Assembly: GCA_946411155.1 (NCBI GenBank)
Contig: CAMKDB010000001.1
Location: forward strand, 32,363 to 96,362
From: an uncultured Faecalibacterium sp.
GTDB taxonomy: Bacteria; Bacillota; Clostridia; Oscillospirales; Ruminococcaceae
Length of the DNA stretch: 64,000 bases
Direction: 5' to 3'
Numbering within the stretch: the first letter of the stretch is position 1; each line of letters opens with the position of its first letter. A program made the position numbers and the translations under genes. The notes under the pieces are model-generated. The model was not told the origin of the DNA and made no database searches. It saw only the letters and a program-made list of their open reading frames with translations. Shown here piece by piece: positions 31,722 to 64,000 of the stretch.

Positions 31722-31724
31722 ATT

Positions 31725-34130: not shown

Positions 34131-34143
34131 TTTGGTTTCTCCT

Positions 34144-34165: not shown

Positions 34166-34277
34166 GAGTAGATTCAGTAGAGAGCGTCAAAGTGTTTAAA
34201 ACTGCGTTTTGTGATGATATACCAATGAAATATACGATGAAAATCTTTAACACGGAGACGTTCAAATGATGCGTAAA

Positions 34278-34334
34278 TGTTGAAACAGAAATATCAGATG
34301 TTGAAGGTGTTGAAAACAGGATGTTGATTGTTGA
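34278..34334. repeat. five same-orientation copies of a TGTTGA core (9-mers TGTTGAAAC, TGTTGAAGG, TGTTGAAAA, TGTTGATTG, TGTTGAAAA); degenerate DnaA-box-like
   Basis: The cores start at 34278, 34299, 34308, 34322 and 34329. The best copies differ at 2 of 9 positions from TGTGGATAA, the complement of TTATCCACA. Confidence 0.5.
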
Positions 34335-34342
34335 AAAAATGT

Positions 34343-35653
34343 TTATTGCTGACAGTTTTTGATGATATCTTCCACAATCGCTTTCAGACGGGAATCTTCT
34401 TTCATCTGTTTCTCAACTTTGCGGATGCCATACACGACAGTGGCGTGATTTCTTCCGCCGAATTCGCTTCCAATTTTTTCCATCGTATTTCCTGTAATCT
34501 CGCGGATCACATACATGGCAGTCTGACGGGCATTGGATATTTCTGCATTCTGCTTATTTGAACGGATATCTTCCGCGGTGACACCGAAAGTTCTGGCGCA
34601 TTCTTCGATGATGTTGTCGACCGTTGCCGGCCAGGGCATCTGTTCATTGATGATATCGCTGATTGCTTCCTGTGCCTGAGACAATGTCGGTTCCGTACCG
34701 TTCATCAGATAATATGCATACAGTTTTTTCAAAGATCCTTCCAGCTGGCGGATATCGTTCTTCAGCTGTTTGGCAATATATTCCGCCACATCAGCAGGCA
34801 GGGTAAAGTTCATTTCTTCCGCTTTCTGATAAAGGATGGAAATCCTCGTTTCAATATCCGGCGGTTTGACATCAGCAATGAGACCCCACTCAAAACGGGT
34901 ACGCAGACGGTCTTCCAGACTTTTGATTTCTTTTGGAGGACGGTCCGAAGTCAATACGATCTGTTTATGGGCATCATGAAGCGCATTGAAAGTGTGGAAG
35001 AATTCTTCCTGTGTGGATTCCTTTCCGCCGATAAACTGGACATCGTCCACCAGCAGGACATCCACATTGCGGTATTTATCATGGAAAGGTTCTGTGGAAC
35101 CGCTTTTGATTGCAGCAATCAGTTCATTGGTAAAACTGTCTCCGCCGATGTACAATACCTTCAGTTCCGGTCTTGTACTTGCAAGCTGATTTTTGATTGC
35201 ATACAGAAGGTGTGTTTTTCCGAGTCCGGATGCGCCGTAGATGAACAGCGGGTTGTAGGTATTAGAAGGATTTGCTGCTACAGCGACAGCAGCCGCATGA
35301 GCAAAGCGGTTGTCCGATCCGATGATGAAATTATCGAACGTATAGGATTCCTCACCGCGAGAGACCATGGGACCCGGTGTGACGGGAACAGGATCCGGTT
35401 TCATCGCATCCCTGGAAAGGATGGTAAGTTCAAGAGGATATCCGATCACCGCTTCAAAACCCTCTTTCAGAAGGGGAAGGTAACGTGTTTCAAGTGTCGT
35501 GCGGATAAAATCAGAGGAAGTGCTGAGAACAGCACTGTCACCGGAAAAAGATTCTGCCTCAATACCCTTGAACCAGAGATTGTAGGCGGCTTCTGTGACT
35601 TGTTCCCTGCAGTATTCCTTTACGGCATCAACACACTGGGAAAAGGATTCCAT
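34343..35653 (-). CDS. dnaA: chromosomal replication initiator protein DnaA
   Basis: Walker A IYGASGLGKTHLL, LLVDDVQFIGGKESTQEEFFHTFN, and the C-terminal DNA-binding GGRNHATVVYGIRKVE. Confidence 0.97.
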   Translation of the reverse strand: MESFSQCVDAVKEYCREQVTEAAYNLWFKGIEAESFSGDSAVLSTSSDFIRTTLETRYLPLLKEGFEAVIGYPLELTILSRDAMKPDPVPVTPGPMVSRGEESYTFDNFIIGSDNRFAHAAAVAVAANPSNTYNPLFIYGASGLGKTHLLYAIKNQLASTRPELKVLYIGGDSFTNELIAAIKSGSTEPFHDKYRNVDVLLVDDVQFIGGKESTQEEFFHTFNALHDAHKQIVLTSDRPPKEIKSLEDRLRTRFEWGLIADVKPPDIETRISILYQKAEEMNFTLPADVAEYIAKQLKNDIRQLEGSLKKLYAYYLMNGTEPTLSQAQEAISDIINEQMPWPATVDNIIEECARTFGVTAEDIRSNKQNAEISNARQTAMYVIREITGNTMEKIGSEFGGRNHATVVYGIRKVEKQMKEDSRLKAIVEDIIKNCQQ

Positions 35654-35667
35654 GTATCATTCCTCAT

Positions 35668-35740
35668 TCAAAAAAGTATAGAATAATATAATATAATACT
35701 AATAATATAAACCAATTAATTTTACCAAATTTTGAGTATG
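35668..35740. other. strongly AT-rich tract immediately upstream of dnaA (dnaA leader and/or second oriC module)
   Basis: AAAAAAGTATAGAATAATATAATATAATACTAATAATATAAACCAATTAATTTTACC... read directly from the sequence. Confidence 0.35.
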
Positions 35741-35747
35741 TTTTCAA
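35719..35747 (-). promoter_or_regulatory. candidate dnaA promoter TTGAAA-N17-TAAAAT; the -35 lies inside a GGTTGAAAA DnaA-box-like 9-mer
   Basis: Minus-strand reading: -35 at 35747-35742 and -10 at 35724-35719. Confidence 0.35.
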
Positions 35748-35836
35748 CCTGAACAGCAGCAAAAACAATGGTCCAAAAATGCTGATTCTGCAAGGAAAAA
35801 TCATAAAAAACATAAAGAAAAGGCAAGTAGTTTTCC

Positions 35837-35866
35837 TTGACAAGAAAAATAGCCTTAGTATATACT
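35837..35866 (+). promoter_or_regulatory. candidate rpmH promoter TTGACA-N18-TATACT
   Basis: TTGACA at 35837-35842 and TATACT at 35861-35866, about 35 nt upstream of the rpmH ATG. The RBS is AAAGGAG. Confidence 0.5.
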
Positions 35867-35900
35867 TGTAATCCGCAAGGTTTTACAAAGGAGAATTTCA

Positions 35901-36035
35901 ATGCAGCCTACATTTCACCCGAAAAAGCGCACCCAGAAGAGAGAGCATGGTTTTCTCAAACGCATGTCCTCCAAGAGCGGACGCAAGATCCTGGCGCGTC
36001 GTCGTGCACGCGGCAGGGCTCGTTTAAGCGCGTAA
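35901..36035 (+). CDS. rpmH: 50S ribosomal protein L34
   Basis: Hand translation gives [44 protein letters not shown] (44 aa). It is absent from the ORF track because it is under 60 aa. It holds the classical position upstream of rnpA and divergent from dnaA. Confidence 0.9.
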
Positions 36036-36092
36036 AATGAGAAGCCAACCCTTCGCGGCTGGCTTTATTAATAGTTACTGGAATGTTTTCCT

Positions 36093-36428
36093 ATGAAATT
36101 GAAAACATTAACGCAGAATTATCAGTTTTTGCGCGCTTACAAAAGTAAAAAAGCCTATGTATCTCCCATGCTGGTCACTTATGTGGTACCGAAAAAGCAT
36201 GGAGGGATTTGTTTGGGTATAACGACAAATAAAAAACTCGGTTGTGCTGTGGAACGAAACCGCGCAAGACGAATTGTCCGAGCGGCAGCGACGGATTTGC
36301 TCAGGGATAATGAGTGTTCCGCGAATATCGTCGTGGTCTGCAGACATCCGATTCTGAAGAAAAAGAGCACGGATGTCAGAGAGGTGCTCGAAAAACATTT
36401 CACCCAGGCCGGTATCCTGTCCACATGA
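36093..36428 (+). CDS. rnpA: ribonuclease P protein component
   Basis: 111 aa and basic, with the RNRARRIVR motif. Synteny rpmH-rnpA-yidD-yidC. Confidence 0.9.
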   Translation: MKLKTLTQNYQFLRAYKSKKAYVSPMLVTYVVPKKHGGICLGITTNKKLGCAVERNRARRIVRAAATDLLRDNECSANIVVVCRHPILKKKSTDVREVLEKHFTQAGILST

Positions 36429-36685
36429 TCAGCAGAATCGTCAGCAAGCTCCTGATCGGTCTTGTCAGACTGTATCAGATCACACTCTCTCCACTGCTTG
36501 GAAAAAACTGCAGATACATCCCGACTTGCAGCCAATATATGATCGGTGCTATTCAGATCCACGGACCCGTGCGTGGGACATGGCTTGGCATCCGCCGGAT
36601 TCTTCGCTGCAATCCACTCGGCGGATGGGGATTCGACCCGGTCCCTCAGAAAAAAACTAACTTACTCGGAGATAATAAAAAATGA
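36425..36685 (+). CDS. yidD: membrane protein insertion efficiency factor YidD
   Basis: LYQITLSPLLGKNCRYIPTCSQYMIGAIQIHG. ATGA overlap with the rnpA stop. The longer track ORF starts inside rnpA. Confidence 0.9.
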   Translation: MISRIVSKLLIGLVRLYQITLSPLLGKNCRYIPTCSQYMIGAIQIHGPVRGTWLGIRRILRCNPLGGWGFDPVPQKKTNLLGDNKK

Positions 36686-37740
36686 ATTTTTTGAACCAAC
36701 TTCTGGCCATCCCGCTCGGATATATTATGAAGTTCTGCTACTGGCTTGCAGAAGATATCCTTCATTTCCCGCTGGCCTACCTTTTCGCCCTGCTGCTCTT
36801 TACTCTGATCACGAAGATTCTGATGTTCCCTCTGAGCATCAACCAGCATAAGAGTACTGCACAGATGGCTGCGTTCAACCCACTGGTCCAGGATATCCAG
36901 ACCCGCTACAGGAACGACCGAGACAAACAGAACGAGGAACTTACGAAACTGACCACCGAGTACGGCTACAATCCGACTGCCGGATGTCTGCCCATGGTCA
37001 TCAACCTTCTGATCATGTTCGGTCTTGTTGAGGTCATTTACAGACCTCTGACCTATATGCTGACGCTTCCCAAGGATTTCATCGCCTCTCTGGCTGAGCG
37101 CACGATTTCCCTTGCCGAAACAGCAGGCACCACCATCGCAAGTAACAATCGTATGATTGAGACTTATATTATTCAGTACGTAAAGTCCAATGCCGGCGCG
37201 TTTTCAGACATTGCTACCGCATATGCGAACGAGTTCAAGACTATCCAGGATCTGAAAATGAACATCGGTAGCATCAATCTGTATGAAAAACCGGAACTGA
37301 AGTTCGGTATCGCTCTGCTGATCCCGCTGTTTTCCATCGCCACGCAGCTCATTGCTACTACTGTCTCCATGAAGAGCTCCGGCACCCAGTCGGGAGAAGC
37401 GGCAAGACAGACGAGAACCATGCTCTGGACGACAAGCCTGATGTTTGCAGGTTTTTCCTTCATGTATCCCCTCGGCTTCAGCCTTTATTGGGGATTTCAG
37501 AACCTGCTCTCCATGCTCCAGAGCCTTCTGCTGAAGAAGATGTATGATCCGGAAAAGATGAAACAGGATATTTTGGATCAGATCAAACAGAAGAAAAAAC
37601 AGAAGAACGCAAAACGCACTGTGGCTTATACGGACAAAACGACCGGAAAAACCGTCGAGAAAGAGATGACTGCGAACGAAGCGGACCGCATACGTCTGCA
37701 GCGTGCCAGAGAGATCGATGCCGAACGGTACGGTGAGTAG
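36682..37740 (+). CDS. yidC: YidC/Oxa1-family membrane protein insertase with a basic C-terminal tail
   Basis: Conserved polytopic core with LMFPLSINQHKSTAQMAAFNP and YPLGFSLYWGFQNL. ATGA overlap with yidD. Confidence 0.9.
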   Translation: MNFLNQLLAIPLGYIMKFCYWLAEDILHFPLAYLFALLLFTLITKILMFPLSINQHKSTAQMAAFNPLVQDIQTRYRNDRDKQNEELTKLTTEYGYNPTAGCLPMVINLLIMFGLVEVIYRPLTYMLTLPKDFIASLAERTISLAETAGTTIASNNRMIETYIIQYVKSNAGAFSDIATAYANEFKTIQDLKMNIGSINLYEKPELKFGIALLIPLFSIATQLIATTVSMKSSGTQSGEAARQTRTMLWTTSLMFAGFSFMYPLGFSLYWGFQNLLSMLQSLLLKKMYDPEKMKQDILDQIKQKKKQKNAKRTVAYTDKTTGKTVEKEMTANEADRIRLQRAREIDAERYGE

Positions 37741-37757
37741 AAAGGAAAAAGCACAGT

Positions 37758-38981
37758 ATGGCAGAAATCATCACGACAGGAAAGACTGTCGATGAGGCTG
37801 TCGAAGAGGGATGCAAACAGTTGGGCGTATCCCGGGACGAAATCAGCATCGAAGTGCTGGAAATGCCTCAGAAGATTCTGTTCTTTTCCAAACCTGCCAA
37901 GGTGAAAATCACCCAGAAGAGAGACGAGTTCTCTGTACATGATCTTCTTTACGGAGATGATCACAAGCCTGAGAAGAAAAAGGCAGAAAAAAAGGAACAA
38001 AAAGAGCAAAAAGAACAGAACAACAGTAAAAAACAGAATCAGAAACAGAAAAACAAAGACAAAGAAGAAAAACAGAATCAGCCGAAAGAAGAAAAAAAGA
38101 AGACAGAAAAGGCTGAAGTCAAAACAGAGAATGCTCCGAAAGAGCAGAAAAAAGACCAGAAAAAGGATCAGAAGAAAGAGCAGAAATCCGGCAAGAAAGA
38201 ACAGAAGAACACTGTCAAGGAAGCAAAAAAACAGCAGAAGCCCGAAGAAAAGAAACTGGCGGCCGTGACTGTGCTTGATGAGCCGGAAGACAACGATGAA
38301 GATCTCTCCGCAGAAGTCATTCTGGAAACAATCCAGGAAAATGAACTGCCGGGAAGAGCGGTGAAGGCGCTCTCGTTCCTGAAAGAGATCGTTTCCGCAT
38401 ACGGTGCAAAGGAAGTAGAATATTCCTTTGCCAAGACCGAACGCGGTGTCTGCATTCAAATCGGCGGAGAAGATGCGCCGATGCTCATCGGCAAACGCGG
38501 AGAACTGATGGATGCCATTCAGTACCTGTGCACTGTCGGTTCTTCCAGAGACAGCGGCGATTACTGCCGTGTAAGTCTGGATATCGAAGGATACAGGGCA
38601 CGCAGGGAAAAAGCTCTTCGAGGAGTTGCGGCGAAGACCGCCTCCAAGGTCCTGCGTATCCACCGCAGCCAGGCTCTTGAGCCGATGAATCCCTATGAGC
38701 GTGCAATTGTGCACTCCGAAGTTCAGAAAATCAAAGGCGTCAGTTCTCACTCCGTGGGAAGCGAACCCAGACGCAAAGTCGTGATCACCCTGGAAGGTGA
38801 GGGCGGCGAGGAAAGAAAGCGCAGCCGTAGAGGGCGTTCGGGAAAAGTCAGCGGTGAACGCAGATCCTCCGAACACACACCTTCCGTTCCGAAAGTCAGG
38901 ATGAGCGATATTCCTGTCAAAAAAGAACTGAAGTCCACGGAAGAATTCATCGGAAGTCTTTACGGAAAAATTGAATTGTAA
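37758..38981 (+). CDS. jag: Jag/KhpB-type RNA-binding protein (Jag_N, KH, R3H) with an expanded K/E/Q-rich linker
   Basis: Jag_N TGKTVDEAVEEGCKQLGVSRDEISIEVLE, the KH region DIEGYRARREKAL and R3H LEPMNPYERAIVHSEVQ. Residues 70-166 are low-complexity. Confidence 0.85.
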   Translation: MAEIITTGKTVDEAVEEGCKQLGVSRDEISIEVLEMPQKILFFSKPAKVKITQKRDEFSVHDLLYGDDHKPEKKKAEKKEQKEQKEQNNSKKQNQKQKNKDKEEKQNQPKEEKKKTEKAEVKTENAPKEQKKDQKKDQKKEQKSGKKEQKNTVKEAKKQQKPEEKKLAAVTVLDEPEDNDEDLSAEVILETIQENELPGRAVKALSFLKEIVSAYGAKEVEYSFAKTERGVCIQIGGEDAPMLIGKRGELMDAIQYLCTVGSSRDSGDYCRVSLDIEGYRARREKALRGVAAKTASKVLRIHRSQALEPMNPYERAIVHSEVQKIKGVSSHSVGSEPRRKVVITLEGEGGEERKRSRRGRSGKVSGERRSSEHTPSVPKVRMSDIPVKKELKSTEEFIGSLYGKIEL

Positions 38982-38991
38982 TTGAACACCG

Positions 38992-39051
38992 GGGTCAAAG
39001 GTCGGTGTTCCCAGCATGGTTTGGGAACAGGGGATACTTTGACCCTTTTTT
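38992..39051 (+). terminator. long compound hairpin plus T-run after jag (terminator or attenuator)
   Basis: GGGTCAAAG (38992-39000) pairs with CTTTGACCC (39037-39045) and is followed by TTTTTT. An inner hairpin is GTTCCCA/TGGGAAC. A competing helix is GAACACCG (38983-38990) with CGGTGTTC (39003-39010). Confidence 0.5.
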
Positions 39052-43439: not shown

Positions 43440-44426
43440 ATGGATAGGATAATGAAAAAAGCAGTCTGCTTAGGAATGTTGTTGGTAATGGTCTTTTCGA
43501 TGTCGTTTGCCGGAAGGGAAAGAGTGTATGCTGCGGAAGCAACTGTTCCCGATCGGCAGGAAGCGGGAGCGCCGTACCTGACTGTGTATACGGAACTGAT
43601 TCAGCTGCCGATGAACGGAACGCAACAGATTTCTTATGATACGAATGCCGACAAAGTCACCTGGACGAGTGACAATCCCGAGGTTGTGTCCGTTGATAAA
43701 AACGGACTGGTCACAGCACTGAAAGTCGTGTACGACGATACGTGGATCACGGCGTCGATCCCTGACGGAAACGGCGGAACAATCGAGCGGAGATGTCTGG
43801 TCTATACTTATTTCATCGATGTCTACGGGGATTATCCGTACTATTTCTTTCCCGTCTACTGGGCGTTCGGACAGAATATCACCACAGGATATACGGACAG
43901 CCACGGGAATCAGACCGGGTATTTCGGACCGGATGATTCGTGTACCCGGGGGCAGATTGTGACATTCATGTACCGTTTTCTCAAGGATTACTTCCCGGCG
44001 GATACCGGAGGAGGGATGTCTTTCTCCGATGTCAAAAAGAAAACGTATTATTATGACGCCGTCAAATGGGCGGTTGCGAACGGAATCACGACAGGCTATA
44101 CCGATGAGAACGGGAACCCGACTGGGGAATTCGGACCGGACGATATATGCACACGTGCGCAGATCGTGACCTTCATCTACCGCCTGCTGAGGGAAGAATG
44201 GCCGCAAAATGTTGACACCAGCGGGGTCAGTTACAAAGACGTTAAAAAGAACACGTATTATTATGACGCGGTTCGGTGGGCAGTTGCGGCAGGGATCACG
44301 ACCGGATTTACTGATGCAAACGGAAATCCGACCGGAAGATTCGGACCGAACCAGAATTGTACACGCGGGCAGGCTGTGACGTTCATTTACCGAATCGGAT
44401 TCGAATCAGACTGGTATTTCAGCTGA
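43440..44426 (+). CDS. secreted protein with an Ig-like (Big_2-like) segment and three SLH-like repeats
   Basis: A signal peptide is followed by VTWTSDNPEVVSVDKNGLVTALK. Three ~57-aa repeats follow, of the type FSDVKKKTYYYDAVKWAVANGITTGYTDENGNPTGEFGPDDICTRAQIVTFIYRLL. Confidence 0.8.
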   Translation: MDRIMKKAVCLGMLLVMVFSMSFAGRERVYAAEATVPDRQEAGAPYLTVYTELIQLPMNGTQQISYDTNADKVTWTSDNPEVVSVDKNGLVTALKVVYDDTWITASIPDGNGGTIERRCLVYTYFIDVYGDYPYYFFPVYWAFGQNITTGYTDSHGNQTGYFGPDDSCTRGQIVTFMYRFLKDYFPADTGGGMSFSDVKKKTYYYDAVKWAVANGITTGYTDENGNPTGEFGPDDICTRAQIVTFIYRLLREEWPQNVDTSGVSYKDVKKNTYYYDAVRWAVAAGITTGFTDANGNPTGRFGPNQNCTRGQAVTFIYRIGFESDWYFS

Positions 44427-52982: not shown

Positions 52983-53324
52983 TCAGCCATACCGGGCTTC
53001 CGTCAGCGGCTGCTCCCAGCAGACGGTGCTCCCCGCGGTTCCGGCAAGCTCATTTACGGCGTCCCTGACCATTTCAAGACAGGCGGCGTCTTTCTTTTTG
53101 GAGCGTCTGCCCTTTCCCTCCGTCAGGACTTTGGAGAAATAGGCGTCGTAAGAGACGGCGAAATCCTCAGGGTCATTGTGGGGAAAGAAGCTGACGCTGG
53201 TTTCATAGGTGATCATACCGGCATCGGAAGTGGCGGTGAGTTTCACGGAAGCGCCGTGGCGGGGAACCCCGTTCCATACGCCGTCGGCGGCAAAATACTG
53301 CTGATAGACATCGATCACTAGCAT
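52983..53324 (-). CDS. hypothetical protein (113 aa)
   Basis: The internal ATG is preceded by AAAGGAGAC. No family recognised. The longer track ORF lacks an RBS. Confidence 0.4.
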   Translation of the reverse strand: MLVIDVYQQYFAADGVWNGVPRHGASVKLTATSDAGMITYETSVSFFPHNDPEDFAVSYDAYFSKVLTEGKGRRSKKKDAACLEMVRDAVNELAGTAGSTVCWEQPLTEARYG

Positions 53325-53465: not shown

Positions 53466-53696
53466 TCAGTCTTCCTGAAGTCTTTCAATAAGAGCGGCGA
53501 TGGCTTCCGCAGAATTGAAATTTTCCGGTTCGAGATCGTCCACGCTGATCTCGACATCAAACACATCGTTGCATTCGCTGACGATGGAGATGATGTCAAA
53601 GGAATCCAGCAGGTCGTCATCGATCAGACGCGTCTCATTCTCGAAATCCAGGTCCGGACGGACCTCGCTGAGGATCTCCAATAACCTTTCCAGCAT
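53466..53696 (-). CDS. acyl/peptidyl carrier protein (DltC-like size, 76 aa)
   Basis: LIDDDLLDSFDIISIV contains the DS(F/L) phosphopantetheine-serine motif in an acidic small protein. The ATG at 53696 is preceded by GGAGG, 4 nt after the upstream stop. Confidence 0.75.
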   Translation of the reverse strand: MLERLLEILSEVRPDLDFENETRLIDDDLLDSFDIISIVSECNDVFDVEISVDDLEPENFNSAEAIAALIERLQED

Positions 53697-53700
53697 TGTT

Positions 53701-54396
53701 TCATTCCTCCTGTTTTTTGTGAACCGTTTCCAGCTGATCAAGTATCTCATCTGTGAGCTCGCCAGAAAGCAGGCTCCAGTTTTCAACAACGGTATCATCC
53801 GGCCAGTCCCACCACCGGATCGCAAGCAGCCGCCGGATCTGCTCCTCCGGGAACCGGTATCCGATCACCCTTGCGGGCACGCCTGCCGCAATGGCATAGG
53901 GCGGGATGCTTTTTGTCACGACCGCGCCGGCACCGATCACAGCGCCGTCTCCCACGGTCAGGCCGGGTTTTCGTGCGATCGAGACGCCCTGACCGATCCA
54001 TACATCGTTGCCCACCCGGATCATCTCCTCGTCCGGATGCTTTTTCGGTTTGCCCATCATGCGGGTCCTGAAACGATAATCCGGCATCATGGAAGTGGCG
54101 CGGTAGTTGTGCTCATTGCCGCCGATATCCACGGAACGGGAGATGCAGCAGTATTTCCCGACTTCTGCCCAGAGGATGCAGGTATCCGTTCCCGTGTAGC
54201 TCATATCGCCGATGACGGAAGCCCGGATCAGATTGCGCTTCTCGATATCACAACGGGAGCCGATCACGGAATTCAGGACAATCGAATCGTGGTCGACGGT
54301 GGAACCCGCGCCGATCCGGCTCTGCTTGATCAGGACATCTCTTCCAGTTTTATATTGTTTCGTTTCGTCTTCCACGGTACCTCCGGATGCGTTCAC
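53701..54396 (-). CDS. hexapeptide-repeat (LbH) acyltransferase, CatB/Vat (XAT)-like
   Basis: Repeated [LIV]G hexads and the C-terminal IAAGVPARVIGYRFPEEQIRRLLAIRWWDWPD. The GTG start overlaps the upstream stop (GTGA). Confidence 0.85.
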   Translation of the reverse strand: MNASGGTVEDETKQYKTGRDVLIKQSRIGAGSTVDHDSIVLNSVIGSRCDIEKRNLIRASVIGDMSYTGTDTCILWAEVGKYCCISRSVDIGGNEHNYRATSMMPDYRFRTRMMGKPKKHPDEEMIRVGNDVWIGQGVSIARKPGLTVGDGAVIGAGAVVTKSIPPYAIAAGVPARVIGYRFPEEQIRRLLAIRWWDWPDDTVVENWSLLSGELTDEILDQLETVHKKQEE

Positions 54397-55196
54397 CGCA
54401 GTGTGCCGCCTGAAACACCGGGCAGAGCGAATAGCCTGTCTGCGAATGCTTCAGGGTCTGTCTCGATACAATTATGACACCCCGGAAAGGTTTCCACAAG
54501 CCAGCCCAGAGAAGCGGCTGCTTTTTCCGATGCGGAGCGGAAAAGATTGTCCGCTCCGTCCGATGAGAGACAGATCACGACGGGAACGGTCAGTCTGCGG
54601 AGTTCATCCGGGTCGAAAGCGCAAGCAAGCAATCCGCGCATTTCACCGTTCATGAATTCTCTTGCACCGGAAAGAGCGCGTTTTACATTCTGAATGGCGT
54701 CTCCCGGAGAAGCGGATCTTCCGGGGTGAATGTCCGCCGCCTGGATAAAGGCGGGGAAAAGGTCCGTGATCCTGCCGGTTTCCGCAATGCGGAGAAGCTC
54801 ATCGCGCCATCTGTCCAGTTCGGGCAGTTCAGTCCCGCTCAGGCGGAAGGCTGGCTCGAAAAGGATCAGTCCTTTCACCAGTTCGGGATGATCCAGCGCA
54901 AGTCTGAGCGCAATCACGCCTCCCGCGCTATGCCCAAGGACCCACGCAGGAGCGCTGTCCGTACGGGAAAGAAGGGAGGCGGCATCCCCTGCCTGCTCCG
55001 TAATGGAGAGTCTGGATGACCCGGACCGGGACTTTCCGCAGCATCTGCGGTCATAAGTGACCGTGCGGAAGCGATCGGAAAGAAACGGGAGCAGTCCGCT
55101 GAAAAAGGAACTGTCGCTCATGATTCCGTGAATGAGCAGGAGTGCCTCCGCTCCGTTGCCATGCTGTTCGTAGTAGATCGGTCCTTCGTAGCTCAT
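54393..55196 (-). CDS. alpha/beta-fold hydrolase
   Basis: LLLIHGIMSDSSFF and the nucleophile elbow VLGHSAGGVIAL. Confidence 0.8.
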   Translation of the reverse strand: MSYEGPIYYEQHGNGAEALLLIHGIMSDSSFFSGLLPFLSDRFRTVTYDRRCCGKSRSGSSRLSITEQAGDAASLLSRTDSAPAWVLGHSAGGVIALRLALDHPELVKGLILFEPAFRLSGTELPELDRWRDELLRIAETGRITDLFPAFIQAADIHPGRSASPGDAIQNVKRALSGAREFMNGEMRGLLACAFDPDELRRLTVPVVICLSSDGADNLFRSASEKAAASLGWLVETFPGCHNCIETDPEAFADRLFALPGVSGGTLR

Positions 55197-55211
55197 GTTG
55201 AAAAATGCGGT

Positions 55212-56804
55212 TCAGAACTGTTCATAGATGAAGTTGCCGCTCACATACCCCGGTCCGTAGATCCCGAAGATCAGGACCAGAAGAATGGCGATGTAATAGA
55301 TCAGCCAGCGGAAGATGAGCGGCTGTCTGGAGATGCTCTCCCGGATCTTTACGCCTTTTTCATGAAGGTTGTCTGTATAGAGAAGGACCAGCACCGCGAC
55401 GGCAAGCACGATCCAGTCCGGACCTTCCAGTCCAAGCCCGAGCAGCGCGCCATTGGAGAGCGGGGACAAGTCATACCAGTTGTGGAACATGGAACCGATC
55501 ATTGCGAAAGCGGTCGCGGTATCTTTTGCTCTGGAAAAGAACCGTCCTACCGAGATGATCCAGAATGTGCGGATCATCCGGAAAACACGCCAGGAGGCGG
55601 AATCCTCATCGATACGGAACAGGCGCCTTCCCTTTTCATACAGGTCCGGAAGAAGCAGACCGCCCACGATGAAGATACCGTTCCAAATCCCGTATAGGAT
55701 ATAGGTCCACTGCGGGCCGTGCCAGATGCCGACCAGGAAATAAACGATGAACATGGCCAGGATCGAGGGGAGTTTTTTACCGAGTGAGGGCCCGACCAGT
55801 TTGCGCGCTTTCTGGCTGAGAGAGCCGAAAGCCTTGGAGAGGGACAGCGGATAGAAAACGTAATCCTTCATCCACGCGCCAAGCGTGATATGCCATCTCC
55901 GCCAGAAATCTTCCACAGACGTGGAGAAATACGGCTGGGTGAAGTTCGGCGTCAGGGTGATGCCAAAGGTCTGTGCGGCACCGAGCGCGATGTCCATGCC
56001 TCCTGAGAAGTCCGCATATACCTGAATGCCGTAAAAAGCGGCACCGAGAAATGCCATCACGCCGCTGTAGTTTTCCGGAGCGGAGAAGATCGCTGAGACC
56101 GGTGTGGCGATGCGATCCGCAATGATCAGTTTTTTCATGAAGCCCCAGAGGATCAGCTGAAGCCCCCTGCAGAATCCGTCCGGATCAAAAGGATGCCCCT
56201 CCGCCAGCTGAGGTCCGAGGTCCCTGTAGCGGGGGATCGGTCCCTGAACGATCTGAGGGAAGAAACAGAGATAAAGCAGCAGCCGGAGCGGGTCCTTTTC
56301 CGGGTCCGCTTTGCCCCTGCTGATGTCCACCAGATAGGAGATGGCCTGAAGCGTATAGAAGGAGATCCCCAGGGGGAGCAGCAGTTTCATCGGGGAATAG
56401 ACCCCTTTGCCTCCCGTGAACAGGGAGACCGCCGTCCCGGCAAAGAAGTTGGAATACTTCAAAAACAGGAGGATTCCGAGAATCACCAGAACGAAGAGAG
56501 TCAGGACCTGCTTCGCCTGTTTTTTGGACCGGTCCCTGGCAGATTTCTTTTCTTCCTTCGTCAGGGATGGTTCCTGCTCCAGGAGTGTCTTATAGGAAAA
56601 CAGGCGGGCATGGATCATTCTGCCTCCCGCGTAGACCAGTGCGGCTGTTGCGACGAGTACCAGCGTCAGAAGTCCGCTGTTGACGGCATAGAAAACAAGG
56701 CTTGCCGCCAGAAGCACGAGCCATCTGTGCCGCAGGGGGAACAGATAATAGAGGAGATCCGCGGCAAGGAGCAGGATCAGGAAGGGTACGGATACGAACG
56801 TCAT
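55212..56804 (-). CDS. MBOAT-family membrane O-acyltransferase (DltB/AlgI/PatA type)
   Basis: FYTLQAISYLVDI and the conserved-His region VEDFWRRWHITLGAWMKDYVFYPL. The start at MTFVSVP is preceded by GGAGG. Confidence 0.9.
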   Translation of the reverse strand: MTFVSVPFLILLLAADLLYYLFPLRHRWLVLLAASLVFYAVNSGLLTLVLVATAALVYAGGRMIHARLFSYKTLLEQEPSLTKEEKKSARDRSKKQAKQVLTLFVLVILGILLFLKYSNFFAGTAVSLFTGGKGVYSPMKLLLPLGISFYTLQAISYLVDISRGKADPEKDPLRLLLYLCFFPQIVQGPIPRYRDLGPQLAEGHPFDPDGFCRGLQLILWGFMKKLIIADRIATPVSAIFSAPENYSGVMAFLGAAFYGIQVYADFSGGMDIALGAAQTFGITLTPNFTQPYFSTSVEDFWRRWHITLGAWMKDYVFYPLSLSKAFGSLSQKARKLVGPSLGKKLPSILAMFIVYFLVGIWHGPQWTYILYGIWNGIFIVGGLLLPDLYEKGRRLFRIDEDSASWRVFRMIRTFWIISVGRFFSRAKDTATAFAMIGSMFHNWYDLSPLSNGALLGLGLEGPDWIVLAVAVLVLLYTDNLHEKGVKIRESISRQPLIFRWLIYYIAILLVLIFGIYGPGYVSGNFIYEQF

Positions 56805-56808
56805 AATC

Positions 56809-58704
56809 TCAGTCCTCCTTTCCGCTGGACGTGACCGGATCGGAAGGATACTCGTAGACCGTCCCTCCGTATTCGATGACACTCACGACACGGTATGTAA
56901 CGGGGCCGGTCAGCGGATCCGCGTCGACATAATAATCTGCGGAACGCTTATCCCGGATCAGATCCCAAGCACCGCTGTCGGACAGACGGTAGACTCGGTA
57001 ATAATTCGCGCCTTTCACATGATCCCAGAAGACCCTGCGGGAGCCGTCCGTCTCTTCTTTTACGGAAGGTGACGGGGCGGGAATGTCCCTGAAACGGAGA
57101 AGTCCGTCCGGATTGTAATAACTGACGACGGTCTCTCCGTCGATCTCCTTGGTCGAACTGACGGAATAGCGGTAAGGCAGGTCCGGCTGAACGACGGTAT
57201 CCCGGAAGGAAAGCACGCCGGAATCCGCGGAAATATCAGCGATGGGCAGCCATACGTCACCGTTGATCGCTTTGTAGATTTTATAACCGTCCACGCCGGA
57301 CACCGCCTTCCATGAGATGGTGACTGCGCCGTCCCATTCCTCCAGGAACAGCAGATCCGGCGTGTCCAGCGTCGTGGTAGCGGATTTCATCGGATACAGG
57401 ATCTGTCCGAAACAGGTGGCGCCTTCTTTCTCAACGGCGGCGACCACCGCATAGGAGAACGTGGAGTTCTCGGGGAGGGACAGATCCTGATAATAATCCA
57501 TGTCTCCGGGTACGGTGCCGATGAGGTCGATGGAGGAACGGGGATCCTCAGCTTTGCGGAGGATCGCATAGCCCTGTGCGCCTTCCACAGGCTCCCAGTC
57601 GATCCGGACCGTCGTGCCATATGAAACACAGGAAGTGATCCGGACCCCGCTCAGCGAAGGATCCCATGGAGCGTTGTCCCGTTCCATGGGCGCGATATGC
57701 GGTCCGACGATGTCCAGATATTTCTCGTAGGCGGCGTCCCAGCTGCTGTAAGCGGGATTTCCGCGCTTATCTTTAAAGCCGTATCTCTCCGTGAGATACT
57801 GCCCGAGATAACGGGTATATTTGATGCTGCCGTGAAGGTTCACATGGTAGCCGTTGTAATAATCACATTCCAGCTGGAGTCCGATCTCGTCAACGCTGTT
57901 CATCAGATCCAGAACATCGAATCCTCTGTCGCGGCAGATGTCCGCGACGGTATTCAGCTGACCGATGGCGGATTCATTGGAAACCGCCTGCGGAACAAAG
58001 AGGAACAGGAATCTGCCGCCGGAAGCTTCGCAGTAATCCAGGAGCTGATTCAGCTCTTCCTGCTGGCGGTCGTACAGGGGCAGGGAGGCGTCCGTATAGT
58101 GAAAGGTGGACGTCACATCGGTGTATTGATGCAGGAAGATGTCGTACCAGCTTCCGCCCTTGACGCCGTTGACTTTGCGGACGAAGTCGTTGGTGACCAG
58201 CTCGTTCCATCTGGAATGGAAACGAATGAAAGGGAAATAGTATTCCCAGGGGGAGACCTCTTCCTCGCATTCATCCACCAGATCGTTGATAAGGGCGATC
58301 TTCGTGGGAGACAGTTTCAGATAGTCCGAAACGAAGTGGAAAGAACTTGCCGTGACATCGTCCACATATTTGAAATCGTTCAGGCAGAGGATGTACAGTG
58401 CGTCAGGCTGGGTCTTCATGGCTTCTTCGACCATATAGATCATCGCCTGCGCGGGCATGCTCGGCGTCGACAAAGGAAAGACGGAGATGCCGAATTCTCC
58501 CCACCCGAAAGGGGAGGACCAGTAACTGTAAACGTTGCTCGCCCCGATATATATCGCGTCCAGACTGCCTCTCGGTTCCCGGTAGAAGGCACTGAAACAC
58601 TGGTAGATTCGATTGTCCTTGAATTCGAAGACGGACTGGAATCCGGTCAGAACCAGAGCAAGGCAGGCAAGAAAAGCGATGGACTTCAGTAAGAATTTGC
58701 GCAT
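56809..58704 (-). CDS. membrane-anchored SGNH/DltD/AlgX-like protein with three C-terminal FN3-like repeats
   Basis: An N-terminal anchor helix is followed by AIYIGASNVY (block I-like) and DYYNGYHVNLHG (D..H block). The FN3-like segments are IDWEPVEGAQGYAILRK, ISWKAVSGVDGYKIYK and VFWDHVKGANYYRVYR. Confidence 0.65.
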   Translation of the reverse strand: MRKFLLKSIAFLACLALVLTGFQSVFEFKDNRIYQCFSAFYREPRGSLDAIYIGASNVYSYWSSPFGWGEFGISVFPLSTPSMPAQAMIYMVEEAMKTQPDALYILCLNDFKYVDDVTASSFHFVSDYLKLSPTKIALINDLVDECEEEVSPWEYYFPFIRFHSRWNELVTNDFVRKVNGVKGGSWYDIFLHQYTDVTSTFHYTDASLPLYDRQQEELNQLLDYCEASGGRFLFLFVPQAVSNESAIGQLNTVADICRDRGFDVLDLMNSVDEIGLQLECDYYNGYHVNLHGSIKYTRYLGQYLTERYGFKDKRGNPAYSSWDAAYEKYLDIVGPHIAPMERDNAPWDPSLSGVRITSCVSYGTTVRIDWEPVEGAQGYAILRKAEDPRSSIDLIGTVPGDMDYYQDLSLPENSTFSYAVVAAVEKEGATCFGQILYPMKSATTTLDTPDLLFLEEWDGAVTISWKAVSGVDGYKIYKAINGDVWLPIADISADSGVLSFRDTVVQPDLPYRYSVSSTKEIDGETVVSYYNPDGLLRFRDIPAPSPSVKEETDGSRRVFWDHVKGANYYRVYRLSDSGAWDLIRDKRSADYYVDADPLTGPVTYRVVSVIEYGGTVYEYPSDPVTSSGKED

Positions 58705-58910: not shown

Positions 58911-60071
58911 ATGGACGAGAATAAAGAACTGGACCTCGCTTTGGATCTGGAGATCCCGACCCTTGAGGCGGAACTTGCAACGATGGACGAGACGAGTGTT
59001 GTTCCCGCTCAGGAGACACAGGTCACCAACGGGTTTCTGAAAGAGGAGAATCTGACAGAAGCTGAGGCGAAGGCCGTCGCGGACCTGTCGGAGAAGATCG
59101 ACATCAGCAACTCCAAGATCGTGCTGTATTACGGCACATCCTGCCAGAAGGAGATCGCTTCCTTCTCGGACGCCGCCCTTAAGAATATCCGCACCAAGGA
59201 TCTCGGGGAAGTCGGCGACATGATCACCGCGCTCGTCGGGGAGCTGAAGGGCTTCAACGCAGAGACCGAAGAAAGCAAAGGATTCCTGGGACTGTTCAAG
59301 AAGCCCGCGAATTCGCTTGCCAAACTTCAGGCAAAATACGCCGCCGCAGAGACCAATGTTTCCAAGATCACCAACGTGCTGGAAGACCATCAGAACACTC
59401 TGCTCAAGGACATCGTCATGCTGGACAAGATGTATGACGAGAACCTGGACTACTTCAAGAAACTCACGATGTATATCATCGCCGGCAAAAAGAGACTGGA
59501 GCTGGAGCGCTCCACGACTCTCGTCGACCTGCAGAAGAAGGCTCAGGAGACCGGCCTTGCCGAAGACGCCCAGGCAGCGAACGATTATGCCAATCTGTGC
59601 GACCGTTTCGAGAAGAAACTGTATGATCTGGAGCTGACCCGCGCGATCTCCGTGCAGATGGCGCCTCAGATCCGTCTGATCCAGAACGGCGATACCTTGA
59701 TGGTAGAGAAAATCCAGTCTACGATCATCAATACGATCCCGCTGTGGAAGAACCAGATGGTTCTCGCGCTCGGCATCGCCCATAGCAAAGAGGCGATGGA
59801 GGCTCAGAGCGCAGTCAGCAATCTGACCAACGAGCTGCTGAAGAAGAACGCGGAGACCCTGAAGCAGGGCTCCATCGAGATCGCTACGGAAAGCGAGAGA
59901 GGCATCGTCGACATCGAGACCGTACAGGAGACCAACCGGAAACTCATCGAGACCCTCGACGAGGTCCTGAAGATTCAGGCAGACGGACGCCAGAAACGTC
60001 AGGATGCCGAGAACGAACTCGGTCACATCGAAGCGGAACTGAAGAACAAGCTGCTTGAGATCCGCAACTGA
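58911..60071 (+). CDS. telA: TelA-family toxic anion resistance protein (YaaN-like)
   Basis: 386 aa with SEKIDISNSKIVLYYGTSCQKEIASFSDAALKNIRTKDLGEVGDMI and a long helical body. GGAGG RBS. Confidence 0.88.
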   Translation: MDENKELDLALDLEIPTLEAELATMDETSVVPAQETQVTNGFLKEENLTEAEAKAVADLSEKIDISNSKIVLYYGTSCQKEIASFSDAALKNIRTKDLGEVGDMITALVGELKGFNAETEESKGFLGLFKKPANSLAKLQAKYAAAETNVSKITNVLEDHQNTLLKDIVMLDKMYDENLDYFKKLTMYIIAGKKRLELERSTTLVDLQKKAQETGLAEDAQAANDYANLCDRFEKKLYDLELTRAISVQMAPQIRLIQNGDTLMVEKIQSTIINTIPLWKNQMVLALGIAHSKEAMEAQSAVSNLTNELLKKNAETLKQGSIEIATESERGIVDIETVQETNRKLIETLDEVLKIQADGRQKRQDAENELGHIEAELKNKLLEIRN

Positions 60072-60098
60072 CAGACCGGATGAAAGAAGGAAACCGCT

Positions 60099-60800
60099 AT
60101 GTATGATAAGAGACCCTTAGTCCGCGGAACGGGATGTGCGACGATCATCGGCCTGGTCGTGCTGTATTTCATCGTGCGCAGCATTCTGCCCCATCTCTCA
60201 ACGATCCTGCTCTATCTGATCACGCTGGCTTTCGTCGCGTTGATCGCCTTCGTCGTCGCCCTCATGATCATCTCCTTCCGCTCCAACAACAAGGAGAAAG
60301 AGGAGAAGGCGGCTGAAGAGGGACTTGAGGCGCTGGACGCAGAGAACGCAACGGTTCTCAACAATGCAAAAGCGAGCCTGATCGCACTTCGCGGCCGCGT
60401 GGCCCGCATCAGTAACAGCGAGATCCGCTCCGCGGGCAATGATGTGTGCGAGGAAGCGGATCGCATCCTCGGTGCTCTGCGGAAGAACGTGAAACAGATT
60501 CCGACTGCCCGTCAGTTCTGGAACTATTATCTGCCTTCTCTCGGCACCATCGTAACCAAGTACGAGAAGATCGAGAAGAGCGGCGTCCCGGATGAAAAAA
60601 TGACGGAAAAGGTCCTGACCTATCTGAAAGAGATCAAGACCGCGCTGGAAAAACTGTATAAGAGTCTGTTTGACGATGACAAACTGGATCTCTCCGTTGA
60701 GATGGAAGCCATGAAAATGGCGATGCAGCGAGATGGTCTGATGTCGAACGACGAGACCGAGATCAAGAACGGGGAAGAGACGATCAATCTTACCCTGTGA
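60099..60800 (+). CDS. xpaC: XpaC-like (5-bromo-4-chloroindolyl phosphate hydrolysis family) membrane protein
   Basis: Two N-terminal TM helices, then a helical domain with QFWNYYLPSLGTIVTKYEKIE. Adjacent to telA, as in Bacillus subtilis yaaN-xpaC. Confidence 0.6.
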   Translation: MYDKRPLVRGTGCATIIGLVVLYFIVRSILPHLSTILLYLITLAFVALIAFVVALMIISFRSNNKEKEEKAAEEGLEALDAENATVLNNAKASLIALRGRVARISNSEIRSAGNDVCEEADRILGALRKNVKQIPTARQFWNYYLPSLGTIVTKYEKIEKSGVPDEKMTEKVLTYLKEIKTALEKLYKSLFDDDKLDLSVEMEAMKMAMQRDGLMSNDETEIKNGEETINLTL

Positions 60801-62325: not shown

Positions 62326-63168
62326 TCAGAATGGATTGGTATCGTACGAGAGGAAATTGGAGACTCCTTTATAGTTTTCATAACGGAAGCCGGTCAGACA
62401 GAGTCCGTTTTCACCTTTTGAGAACGTGTAGACGTTGGTCTGCATCTGTTTTGCGATATTTTCCACAAGGTCGATCGGCACGGCATCGCCGTTTCCTGAT
62501 TCCACCAGCAGCGCATTCTCTTCATCTTCGGAGAAAAGGGGATCGACCAGGTTGAGCATCCACAGTTCATAGGTTCCGTCTTCCTTCACAAGCGCAGCCC
62601 AGGTATACAGGAAGGTGTTCGGCATGCCGATTCCGTAAGTCAGGACCATGCCGTTCTCCGTATCCAGCATAAACGGACTGTAATCGGAGGAGAACCAGTT
62701 CGGCGACAGTTCCACCCCACGGCCGAAGACCTCTGAAACGGCGTCGGTCACAGCAGTGATCGGAAGACCCATGGTGAATCCGTCGTCCAGCATCTCAAAC
62801 TGGTCGCCGAGATAACTGACCGCTGTGAAGAATTTGCAGGAGTCCGAGAGCTGATCGGGGGAAACGAACTCCTCCGGCGCATTGCTGAATACGGAAGCGA
62901 GATGTTTCATCTCCAGCAGTTCTTCGTAGGAGCACTCGATCCGGCAGGATGGGAACTCGGCTTCCAGCGCTTCCGCATAGGGATTTTCGTCTTCCCCGGG
63001 AACGGGCAAAGGCTCAGGCTCAGCAGAAGGAGAGGTAGCCGGTGTGTCCGAAGGTTCCGTTTCTGAAGGATGGTTGTAGTAATGCTGATCGTATTCCCGG
63101 TCCTTTCCGCAGGATACGAGAGAAAGGGACAGCGCCAGAAGCAGAAGGGCGGATATTAGTCGTTTCAT
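62326..63168 (-). CDS. lipoprotein of unknown function (280 aa)
   Basis: Lipobox LSLSLVSCGK. Its start overlaps the stop of the FkbH-like gene (ATGA). Confidence 0.7.
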   Translation of the reverse strand: MKRLISALLLLALSLSLVSCGKDREYDQHYYNHPSETEPSDTPATSPSAEPEPLPVPGEDENPYAEALEAEFPSCRIECSYEELLEMKHLASVFSNAPEEFVSPDQLSDSCKFFTAVSYLGDQFEMLDDGFTMGLPITAVTDAVSEVFGRGVELSPNWFSSDYSPFMLDTENGMVLTYGIGMPNTFLYTWAALVKEDGTYELWMLNLVDPLFSEDEENALLVESGNGDAVPIDLVENIAKQMQTNVYTFSKGENGLCLTGFRYENYKGVSNFLSYDTNPF

Positions 63169-64000
63169 GCCCGTTCACCTCCGTTTTCGTGTTCAATGCG
63201 GATCACACTGTTCCGCTGAATGTAGTCATCCGGAATGACAAAACGCCATTCGGATTGGCCTTCCGTGTTTTCTGAAGTCTTTGTGAAACCGAGGGAGGCA
63301 TAGAAGTCTTTCACGATCCGGTTTTTGGCGGTGGGGAGATAGCGTCCGGTGATCTCGGTGCCCCCTTCTTCGCGGACGCGCCGGACCAGTTCATCGAACA
63401 TGGCATATTCCAGGTCTCTCTTGAAGACGCGGCAGGACATGATCCACAGTTCGATGTCCCATACAGCCGGTGCTATGCGCTGAGCGAGGATGACCGAAAC
63501 GATTCCGTTATCTCCGAACTTGTCCACAAGTCTGCCGGAAAGAGTGATGTAATCCGCAGAGGAAGCCCGTGAAGCCATTTCTTCCGGCTGATAGCGGCGG
63601 GTTGTCAGGTTGAATTGGTTGGTCTTGTTCGCCAGTTGGGTGACCCGCTCCAGCTGACCTTCCCGGAAAGAACCGAGGTAGGCTGTCATCTCCAGAGAAG
63701 ACAGATACGCGCCGTAATCCGTGAAGGTAGCCGCGCTCTGCTCCCGTTCCAGGTTTTCCCGGTACATCCGTGCCCGGGAAAGGTCATCAGAGGAGAGCGA
63801 CACGACTTCAAAATAGCCGGCGCGGGAGATGGTTTCCGCGAAGCGTTCCGGAACATCCAGTTCCGGGACTGCTTCCGTAAGTCCGGAATCCCGTACGATC
63901 TTGCGCTCAGCAGGATTGTCATCCGCGAAGACGATGGCATCCGTACCAATATTGAGTTCCTTTGCGGATGCGGCCAGATTCACCGGCTTTGGATCCCAGT
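63165..64000 (-). CDS. HAD-IIIC (FkbH-like) phosphatase domain with a GNAT-like C-terminal domain; 5' part lies outside the window
   Basis: IVFADDNPAERKIV, DKFGDNGIVSVILAQ and LWIMSCRVFKRDLEYAMFDEL match the FkbH-like pattern. The frame stays open to the window edge. Confidence 0.8.
   Translation of the reverse strand, partial: WDPKPVNLAASAKELNIGTDAIVFADDNPAERKIVRDSGLTEAVPELDVPERFAETISRAGYFEVVSLSSDDLSRARMYRENLEREQSAATFTDYGAYLSSLEMTAYLGSFREGQLERVTQLANKTNQFNLTTRRYQPEEMASRASSADYITLSGRLVDKFGDNGIVSVILAQRIAPAVWDIELWIMSCRVFKRDLEYAMFDELVRRVREEGGTEITGRYLPTAKNRIVKDFYASLGFTKTSENTEGQSEWRFVIPDDYIQRNSVIRIEHENGGERA

Follow-up and report, generated by a model that had tools for sequence, protein, structure and literature searches.

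The 64,000 nucleotides analyzed here (the window) come from an uncultured Faecalibacterium sp. (contig CAMKDB010000001.1, forward-strand positions 32,363 to 96,362) and carry a five-gene operon on the minus strand. In order of transcription, the genes encode a DltD-like SGNH ectoprotein (g1), an MBOAT-family membrane acyltransferase (g2), an alpha/beta-hydrolase (g3), an XAT-type hexapeptide acetyltransferase with a left-handed beta-helix (LbH; g4) and a small carrier protein (g5). The operon is real and would serve acyl transfer to a cell-wall polymer via a carrier, a membrane acyltransferase and an outside transferase. The reading of open reading frames (ORFs) and the gene calls place it where an earlier note on this DNA, made from the sequence alone, had located it (Table 1). 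That note had described five packed genes with gaps or overlaps of at most 15 nt, in agreement with the spacings of +4, +15, -4 and +4 nt from g1 to g5. The negative spacing is a GTGA overlap of the g4 start with the g3 stop, and the hydrolase and LbH genes are translationally coupled. The same five proteins were obtained when genes were called independently on five public metagenome contigs from this organism. A promoter scan found sites no more numerous than in shuffled sequence.

The earlier note had named an MBOAT with a WRRWH histidine, an alpha/beta-hydrolase with a GHSAG motif, a CatB/Vat-like LbH acyltransferase and a 76-amino-acid (aa) carrier with a DSF serine, and family searches bear out each of these. 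The membrane protein reads FWRRWH and matches the Pfam MBOAT model with 73.5 bits, and g3 contains GHSAG and matches Abhydrolase_6 (80 bits) and Abhydrolase_1. Hexapeptide repeats are present in g4, with TIGR03308 (133 bits), Vat (106 bits) and CatB (82 bits) as the best NCBIfam matches, all under their cut-offs. The carrier reads LLDSFD and reaches 22.2 bits on PP-binding, barely over the cut-off of 20.8. The note's likening of the operon to both Dlt D-alanylation and Pat/Alg acetylation is correct. As it supposed, no characterized system with such a composition is described in the searchable literature, where we also found no description of cassettes that join this type of carrier to an MBOAT with a fused shuttle motif.

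Table 1. Positions in the window of the operon genes, their motifs and other features.
Feature	Position	Strand	Size	Description
g1	58704..56809	-	631 aa	DltD-like SGNH ectoprotein; residues 1-345 DltD-like SGNH fold (Ser56, Asp281, His287), residues 346-631 three FN3-like segments
g2	56804..55212	-	530 aa	MBOAT; ATG start after GGAGGA ribosome-binding site
WRRWH codons of g2	55890..55904	-		Catalytic-histidine motif, read from the sequence and aligned to DltB FWNRWH
FIYEQF codons of g2	55215..55232	-		C-terminal FxYxxF acyl-shuttle motif, read from the sequence; protein ends ...GNFIYEQF
g3	55196..54393	-	267 aa	Alpha/beta-hydrolase; putative triad Ser90 (in GHSAG), Asp214, His241
g4	54396..53701	-	231 aa	XAT-type hexapeptide (LbH) acetyltransferase; GTG start
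g5	53696..53466	-	76 aa	Carrier protein
Ser32 codon of g5	53601-53603	-		Phosphopantetheine serine in LLDSFD
113-aa ORF	52983..53324	-	113 aa	141 nt downstream of the carrier gene; no family match
FkbH-domain (HAD-IIIC) gene, 3' part	63165..64000	-	597 aa	Complete on L002; TIGR01686
dnaA	34343-35653	-		Followed by dnaN, an S4-domain gene and recF; rnpA, yidD, yidC and jag on the other side
DUF2142 membrane protein	8677-11346
NAD-dependent epimerase/dehydratase	15906-16955
CsbB-like GT2	20419-21465
YfhO	21419-23572

A carrier, a fused-motif acyltransferase and a DltD-like ectoprotein

The nearest relatives of the membrane acyltransferase are DltB proteins. DltB (TIGR04091) is the sole NCBIfam match of g2, and DltB 6bug is its best PDB sequence match (E 1.5e-23), with the catalytic histidine aligned. 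At 158 bits against an equivalog cut-off of 375, g2 is by this comparison a DltB homolog and no equivalog. The protein ends in an FxYxxF acyl-shuttle motif, which lies on the microprotein DltX in Dlt systems and is fused to the C-terminus in PatA-type MBOATs (PMC12148441). Among the full-length MBOATs linked to the same carrier family, all 34 contain WxRWH and all 34 end in FxYxx[F/Y] (30 with F, 4 with Y). FIYEQF is, judged from the motif, the functional equivalent of DltX. No gene for a separate DltX microprotein is called within or beside the operon, which is explained by the MBOAT itself ending in the motif. The earlier note had pointed out the lack of DltA and DltX; both are indeed absent locally, but the function of DltX appears to be supplied by the MBOAT. 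We predict that g2 accepts the acyl group from the carrier on the cytoplasmic side and hands it to its own C-terminal tyrosine outside.

The ectoprotein starts with a hydrophobic helix, a membrane anchor or signal as in DltD. Its first 345 residues match no Pfam or NCBIfam model, the Pfam DltD and SGNH models included, and a 21-sequence g1 profile searched against PDB sequences gave a best E of only 0.12, to the SGNH enzyme TesA. As none of these searches gave a significant match, structure prediction was needed. The AlphaFold2 (AF2) model, built on 44 homologs, has a pLDDT of 93.1 and a pTM of 0.91. Foldseek against the PDB ranks DltD first (6pfx, 6o93, 3bma and 7dxm; E 4e-5 to 7e-4, probability 1.0), followed by PatB (7tjb) and then by generic GDSL enzymes. 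Across 21 cassette-linked and 44 database homologs, Gly54, Ser56 and His287 never vary, and conservation of Asp281 is 90% or more. According to the model, g1 is a DltD-like SGNH-fold protein, and it is the predicted extracytoplasmic final transferase. The SGNH/DltD-like label of the earlier note is upheld by the predicted fold, though not by any sequence family. The three FN3-like repeats that it listed correspond to three segments of about 95 aa, recognized by eye, each with the pattern W..V.G...Y.(I/V)(Y/L)(R/K). Only the third matches Pfam (GH85_C, 46 bits), and self-BLAST of the C-terminal region found no internal repeats.

The carrier scores 31.6 and 20.7 bits on the DltC models, whose cut-offs are 68 and 52.35, and it shares 60-72% identity with the carriers of cassettes that contain a ligase. 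A metagenome scan with a carrier alignment yielded 80 loci (L numbers below refer to metagenome loci), which were then classified locally. In 42 loci, the carrier family is linked to MBOAT and SGNH-like genes, in various gene orders. The family also occurs in loci lacking an MBOAT, among them L094, L098, L101, L103, L107, L108, L118, L125, L129, L133, L135, L143, L146, L151, L159, L160, L162 and L164. Such loci hold genes for a ligase, a GNAT or formyltransferase, KAS III, short-chain dehydrogenase/reductase (SDR), a sugar-transfer ATP-grasp enzyme, a metallo-beta-lactamase (MBL)-fold protein and a second carrier. They look like pathways building acyl side-chains for glycans.

The operon is best read as a hybrid in which a carrier serves as donor, as in Dlt, and the shuttle is fused, as in PatA/AlgI. 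As in Dlt, the genes for a small carrier, an MBOAT and an SGNH-fold ectoprotein anchored in the membrane lie together, DltB is the nearest characterized MBOAT relative and DltD the nearest g1 fold, and the same tyrosine-shuttle chemistry is predicted. Unlike Dlt, the operon includes no DltA, nor does the rest of the 64 kb, its shuttle motif is fused to the MBOAT, and its proteins miss all Dlt equivalog cut-offs. It adds an XAT acetyltransferase and an alpha/beta-hydrolase, and g1 adds the three FN3-like segments. With PatA/PatB, AlgI/AlgJ/AlgX and WssH-type systems the operon shares the C-terminal FxYxxF on the MBOAT and a separate extracytoplasmic SGNH partner, and PatB ranks high among the structures that match the fold of g1. 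These non-Dlt pathways use acetyl-CoA without a carrier protein (PMC12148441), whereas here a carrier is encoded in the operon and cytoplasmic tailoring enzymes are present. The operon is a member of neither group. It is not Dlt because equivalog cut-offs are missed and both DltA and DltX are absent, and it is not Pat/Alg because a strongly constrained carrier contradicts the use of CoA only.

A split dlt system, in which an unlinked DltA charges the carrier with D-alanine for teichoic-acid D-alanylation, would account for DltB as the only family and PDB match of the MBOAT, DltD as the best g1 fold match and the weak resemblance of the carrier to DltC. Sibling cassettes with a GNAT, a formyltransferase, a pyridoxal phosphate (PLP) enzyme or none of these also use DltA-like adenylation enzymes. 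We nevertheless hold a split system to be highly improbable. The DltB and DltC cut-offs are missed widely, Pfam DltD gives no match, and the shuttle motif is not on a DltX. The ligases paired with LbH genes in relatives are not of the amino-acid or DltA type, and D-alanylation has no use for a conserved XAT acetyltransferase. The cut-offs, the fused motif and the ligase type of the relatives led us to reject an ordinary dlt operon.

The fused FxYxxF is typical of CoA-using MBOATs (PMC12148441), and the MBOAT might therefore use acetyl-CoA directly as in Pat systems. The carrier, LbH enzyme and hydrolase would then serve a separate cytoplasmic reaction, or the operon would be a decaying remnant. 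An operon without a loader would fit such a scenario, as would a nonsense codon in the LbH gene on one metagenome contig. This contig, L089, represents a sister lineage that is colinear with the window at 84% nucleotide identity and keeps the ligase-less order. The TGG-to-TAG change (L089 2985-2987) affects the first Trp of WWDW and is either a sequencing error or a strain-level inactivation; in the other assembly of that lineage, whose hydrolase is the same, the LbH gene is intact and codes for 224 aa. The comparison with L089 yielded dN/dS values of 0.067 for the MBOAT (dS 0.685), 0.117 for the hydrolase (dS 0.862), 0.078 for the LbH gene (dS 0.666) and 0.033 for the carrier (dS 0.336), the lowest among the four. 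With dN/dS values of 0.033-0.117, the ligase-less operon is kept by selection, and we rejected a decaying remnant on these values. Of the seven window-lineage contigs examined, six (L001-L005 and the second contig carrying P0122) have all five genes intact, L089 with its nonsense codon being the exception. Furthermore, the carrier gene lies beside the 34 full-length fused-motif MBOATs in many gene orders. A Pat-like use of acetyl-CoA is thus very unlikely.

The tailoring enzyme and the missing ligase

The LbH enzyme g4 is the conserved, presumed tailoring enzyme of one cassette subfamily. Its PDB sequence matches are VatD (1khr, E 2e-24), followed by ApmA and CatB, and the VatD alignment covers residues 78-208, including the WWDW region. 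g4 shares with these XAT-class enzymes the left-handed beta-helix and the C-terminal WWDW helical extension, and differs in sitting in a wall-acylation cassette, with relatives that are invariably paired with a ligase. The position of the catalytic histidine is also offset by two residues in the alignment. An active XAT site in g4 is plausible from the alignment. Vat and CatB scores of 82-106 bits against cut-offs of 300-350 set g4 apart from the resistance enzymes, and on these scores it is none of them. Homologs of g4 number in the thousands in sequence searches. The best 120 LbH matches consist of the window lineage's own protein (P0001, 99% identity) and 119 relatives (P0002-P0120). Of these, P0002-P0119 are 59-73% identical and stem from metagenome-assembled genomes of Clostridia and Lachnospiraceae, and P0120 is a 143-aa fragment with 92% identity over 62% of the query. 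A scan of genome contigs with an LbH alignment, which relied on motifs common to all XATs, showed no MBOAT nearby among the 80 loci listed, the best listed match being 40% identical.

Relatives of the operon retain a ligase. Each of the ten other LbH-type loci has an AMP-binding gene immediately upstream of LbH. A ligase of 466-475 aa can be read in L006, L007, L008, L090, L093, L172, L173 and L175/176, and in L091 and L177 the incomplete upstream gene ends in the ligase C-terminal motif EIPKNxSGK...LNE. Beyond the LbH subfamily, the layout of the wider family is a ligase, one of several tailoring enzymes (PLP decarboxylase, GNAT, formyltransferase, XAT-LbH or nothing), a carrier, an MBOAT and an SGNH-like protein. 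The GNAT, formyltransferase or PLP decarboxylase of sibling cassettes mostly lies between the ligase and the carrier or MBOAT. A ligase is present in 17 of the 19 MBOAT loci whose block is flanked on either side by at least 1.6 kb of sequence, but not in the window or at L167. The contig of L167 (Ga0137308_100741, also L138) has a ligase-formyltransferase-carrier block 18 kb away. That contig carries TagG/TagH-like genes followed by carrier, MBOAT and SGNH-like genes, and is a split system with two carriers that are 86% identical.

In the window, tblastn with four ligase queries found no AMP-binding gene in the 64 kb. Three ORFs of ligase size (513, 476 and 434 aa) have no AMP-binding match in Pfam and are a solute-binding protein, a MatE transporter and an ORF without family match. 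The family is not independent of a ligase. As all ten LbH loci keep the ligase, its absence from the window is a lineage-specific loss or replacement and no design feature. The earlier note had set the LbH enzyme and the hydrolase side by side as extra enzymes outside either paradigm. The two are not equivalent, since the LbH enzyme is fixed in a large subfamily and the hydrolase family is very small.

Two relatives indicate how the operon could have arisen. L173 has the window's order with a ligase instead of the hydrolase (SGNH-like, MBOAT, ligase, LbH, carrier), and g3 occupies exactly the position of that ligase. L090 has the order carrier, hydrolase, ligase, LbH, and deletion of the ligase from an L090-like block would leave the hydrolase-LbH pair of the window. 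We suggest that the ligase gene was lost here and that the hydrolase accompanying it in L090 remained.

The ligases provide an indication of the cargo. Those linked to LbH genes reach only 126-128 bits on the amino-acid adenylation model TIGR01733 (cut-off 317) and match acyl-CoA ligases best, with oxalate-CoA ligase as the best match in the PDB and DltA at only 65 bits. From this likeness to acyl-CoA ligases, and not to enzymes of amino-acid adenylation, a small non-amino (hydroxy)carboxylic acid is a more probable cargo than D-alanine. XATs are O-acetyltransferases. The XAT-type enzyme would act in tailoring or substrate supply, probably by acetylating the cargo or a precursor, in analogy to the GNAT, formyltransferase and PLP decarboxylase of sibling cassettes.

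Sibling clostridial cassettes share the carrier family (56-74% identity), the fused-motif MBOAT type and the SGNH-like family without a Pfam model. They differ in their ligases, which are DltA-like amino-acid adenylation enzymes, in their tailoring enzymes and in keeping the ligase in all but one well-flanked locus. The sibling ligases pass TIGR01733 (320-337 bits, cut-off 317) and score 275-323 bits on DltA models, under those cut-offs. Cassettes with a GNAT or formyltransferase suggest aminoacyl cargoes that would be capped on the nitrogen. No characterized member of the sibling cassettes was found in the searchable literature. The sibling PLP decarboxylase (L127 8795-9988 and similar) has as its best NCBIfam match an "exosortase A system-associated" decarboxylase model (TIGR03099), and TIGR03098, an exosortase A system-associated acyl-CoA ligase, is among the stronger, though not the best, NCBIfam matches of sibling ligases. 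These matches suggest a parallel to an uncharacterized ligase-decarboxylase pair of proteobacterial exopolysaccharide loci. At L177 (1-2814), a ligase-LbH pair lies beside a 683-aa AT3 acyltransferase (PF01757), with no MBOAT. This hints that one cytoplasmic module may feed AT3, the other known class of envelope O-acyltransferase.

Proposed mechanism and charging of the carrier

On balance, and with some reserve, we favor the reading that the operon is a rare ligase-less member of a large, apparently uncharacterized clostridial family of carrier-dependent MBOAT/SGNH systems for envelope acylation. We infer the chemical steps, the cargo, the target polymer and the loader from the gene content, homologies, folds, motifs, neighborhood conservation and purifying selection observed here and in relatives. 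An acyl thioester would form on the phosphopantetheine arm of the carrier at Ser32. The MBOAT, with the histidine of WRRWH, would move the acyl group across the membrane onto the tyrosine of its own FIYEQF. The membrane-anchored DltD-like SGNH domain of g1 would accept it on Ser56, assisted by Asp281 and His287, and form an ester with a hydroxyl group on a glycopolymer of the wall, most likely a teichoic-acid-type polymer.

Several observations weigh against this reading. Donor, cargo and acceptor are deduced, throughout the family, from homology and gene context alone. The score of g2 lies far under the DltB equivalog cut-off, and the likeness of g1 to DltD is distant (TM 0.35-0.42, 10-12% identity). 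The catalytic His82 of VatD aligns with Tyr98 of g4, with an invariant His96 two residues upstream. The operon in this organism is not embedded in a teichoic-acid locus. There is no ligase within the 64-kb window, and since the adjacency of ligase and LbH genes is otherwise invariant, a relocated ligase would itself be an exception.

Candidates for charging the carrier are an unlinked ligase, the hydrolase and a nearby FkbH-domain protein. We consider it most likely that a family-type ligase encoded at an unlinked site acts in trans, because the family always uses a ligase and because a split arrangement exists elsewhere (L138/L167). The other two candidates are alternatives.

The hydrolase g3 may be a short-acyl esterase, a transacylase or an editing enzyme. 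Its AF2 model (pLDDT 85) has as top folds an aryl esterase/perhydrolase of P. fluorescens, feruloyl esterase, haloperoxidases and KAI2/D14. A type II thioesterase is not supported, as the PF00975 thioesterase model gives only 18.6 bits (cut-off 26.4; E 0.0024) and the top 50 fold matches, all esterases, perhydrolases and KAI2/D14, include no such enzyme; g3 may even so have thioesterase activity. The only close homolog of g3 (82% identity) lies in the same MBOAT-hydrolase-LbH-carrier order. A word-indexed search missed the L090 hydrolase, which is 36% identical to g3, and the family was therefore counted with an exhaustive HMMER search. This search found 16 clusters at E<=1e-30 among 1.84 billion representatives. 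The L090 protein, encoded between carrier and ligase genes, belongs to the same small group. The catalytic triad is conserved.

As a loader, the hydrolase would form an acyl-Ser90 intermediate and, possibly with the LbH enzyme, transfer a short acyl group from acyl-CoA to the holo-carrier in place of the ATP-dependent ligase. There are acyltransferases with the alpha/beta-hydrolase fold that work on carrier proteins or with acyl-CoA, such as SyrC/CmaE and MetX, and the nearest folds of g3 are short-acyl esterases and perhydrolases that form acyl-enzyme intermediates. The slot of g3 in the exact place of the L173 ligase, its coupling to the LbH gene, the conserved triad, purifying selection and the retention of the ligase-less order in a second lineage all fit this role. 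However, the L090 homolog coexists with a ligase, which makes the ancestral role accessory rather than loading. Every sequence and fold neighbor of g3 is a hydrolase, and no acyl-CoA:carrier transacylase was found among them. We consider loading by the hydrolase unlikely.

The second candidate is an FkbH-domain (HAD-IIIC) protein encoded about 4.5 kb upstream of the operon on the same strand. It scores 259 bits on TIGR01686 (cut-off 146.65) and forms a two-gene unit (window 62326-64000, L002 1846-4478) with an overlapping gene for a 280-aa predicted lipoprotein without family. Characterized FkbH enzymes (FK520 FkbH, OzmB) make glyceryl-S-ACP. Like these loaders, the 597-aa neighbor passes the FkbH domain model and would need a carrier partner; unlike them, its gene lies outside the operon and polyketide genes are absent. 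Neither on L002 beyond the window end nor between the FkbH gene and the operon is a carrier gene called, which leaves g5 as the nearest carrier. The protein would load the carrier with a glyceryl unit from a phosphoglycerate, and the polymer would then bear a glyceroyl ester that the XAT may O-acetylate. Ligases of the small-organic-acid type and O-acetylating XATs fit such a hydroxy-acid cargo. FkbH homologs also occur within or beside related cassettes, at L173 two genes after the carrier (42% identity) and at L105 inside the cassette (34%). Both of these loci have a ligase in addition, and FkbH is thus no simple substitute. The gene is found in only three of the 42 MBOAT loci, many of them incomplete, and the association may merely reflect the general content of wall-polymer loci. 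In the window it forms a separate transcription unit, with four opposite-strand genes between it and the operon. Loading by the FkbH-domain protein is a distinctly improbable alternative to charging by an unlinked ligase.

Target polymer, surroundings and significance

A polymer of the teichoic-acid type is the better guess for the target. Several relatives of the operon sit among TagF-like (PF04464), ABC-2 transporter (TagG/TagH-like), TarI/TarJ-like and phosphonate-biosynthesis genes. The earlier note had proposed the secondary cell-wall polymer that anchors SLH proteins. The SLH protein gene at 43440-44426 is genuine, but it lies about 9 kb from the operon on the other strand, and with no link from the operon to the SLH protein or to such a polymer, we dropped this target.

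Elsewhere in the window, positions 8677-23572 hold wall-glycopolymer decoration genes, among them a GT2/YfhO pair. The pair resembles a teichoic-acid-glycosylating pair and suggests that the organism makes such a polymer. Positions 31700-39000 are the chromosomal replication origin region, near which the cumulative GC skew has its minimum. The genes telA and a PF10112 member (58911-60800) are divergent from the operon, and a contig of the same organism (L001 7406-8100) seems to lack about 0.7 kb within telA.

Downstream of the carrier gene, the 113-aa ORF is called as a gene on every contig that reaches that far, and it also follows the carrier gene in the sister lineage L089, where its first 30 aa, the part available, are 87% identical. 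Only a weak terminator-like site separates the ORF from g5. The sole strong terminator on the minus strand (52480-52453) comes after the ORF and a GAF gene, and both may be co-transcribed with the operon. Whether the ORF belongs to the acylation system is uncertain.

MBOAT-SGNH pairs are the general bacterial route to envelope-polymer esters, which affect antimicrobial-peptide resistance, autolysin control and host recognition. The current mechanistic account (PMC12148441) knows two designs, one with a carrier as donor and DltX as a protein of its own, the other with CoA as donor and the shuttle fused to the MBOAT; the operon and its relatives combine both. The family-level picture is the main value of these findings, and the ligase-less state is a testable puzzle. 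The ligase-less variant provides a natural test case for charging a Dlt-like carrier without a dedicated ligase, and the variety of tailoring enzymes predicts undescribed wall-polymer chemistry in abundant gut and rumen Clostridia.

The observations can be extended to two tentative readings, which we regard as possible rather than probable. At the level of the family, the cassettes would be a third, undescribed class of MBOAT-SGNH envelope acylation, carrier-dependent like Dlt, with the shuttle tyrosine fused like Pat and with interchangeable cytoplasmic tailoring enzymes (XAT, GNAT, formyltransferase, PLP decarboxylase). If this is true, the wall polymers of gut and rumen Clostridia would bear tailored acyl esters that are neither D-alanyl nor acetyl. 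In the window lineage, the ATP-dependent ligase would have been replaced by ATP-independent charging, either by the hydrolase as a transacylase with acyl-CoA or by an FkbH-type loader with a glycolytic intermediate.

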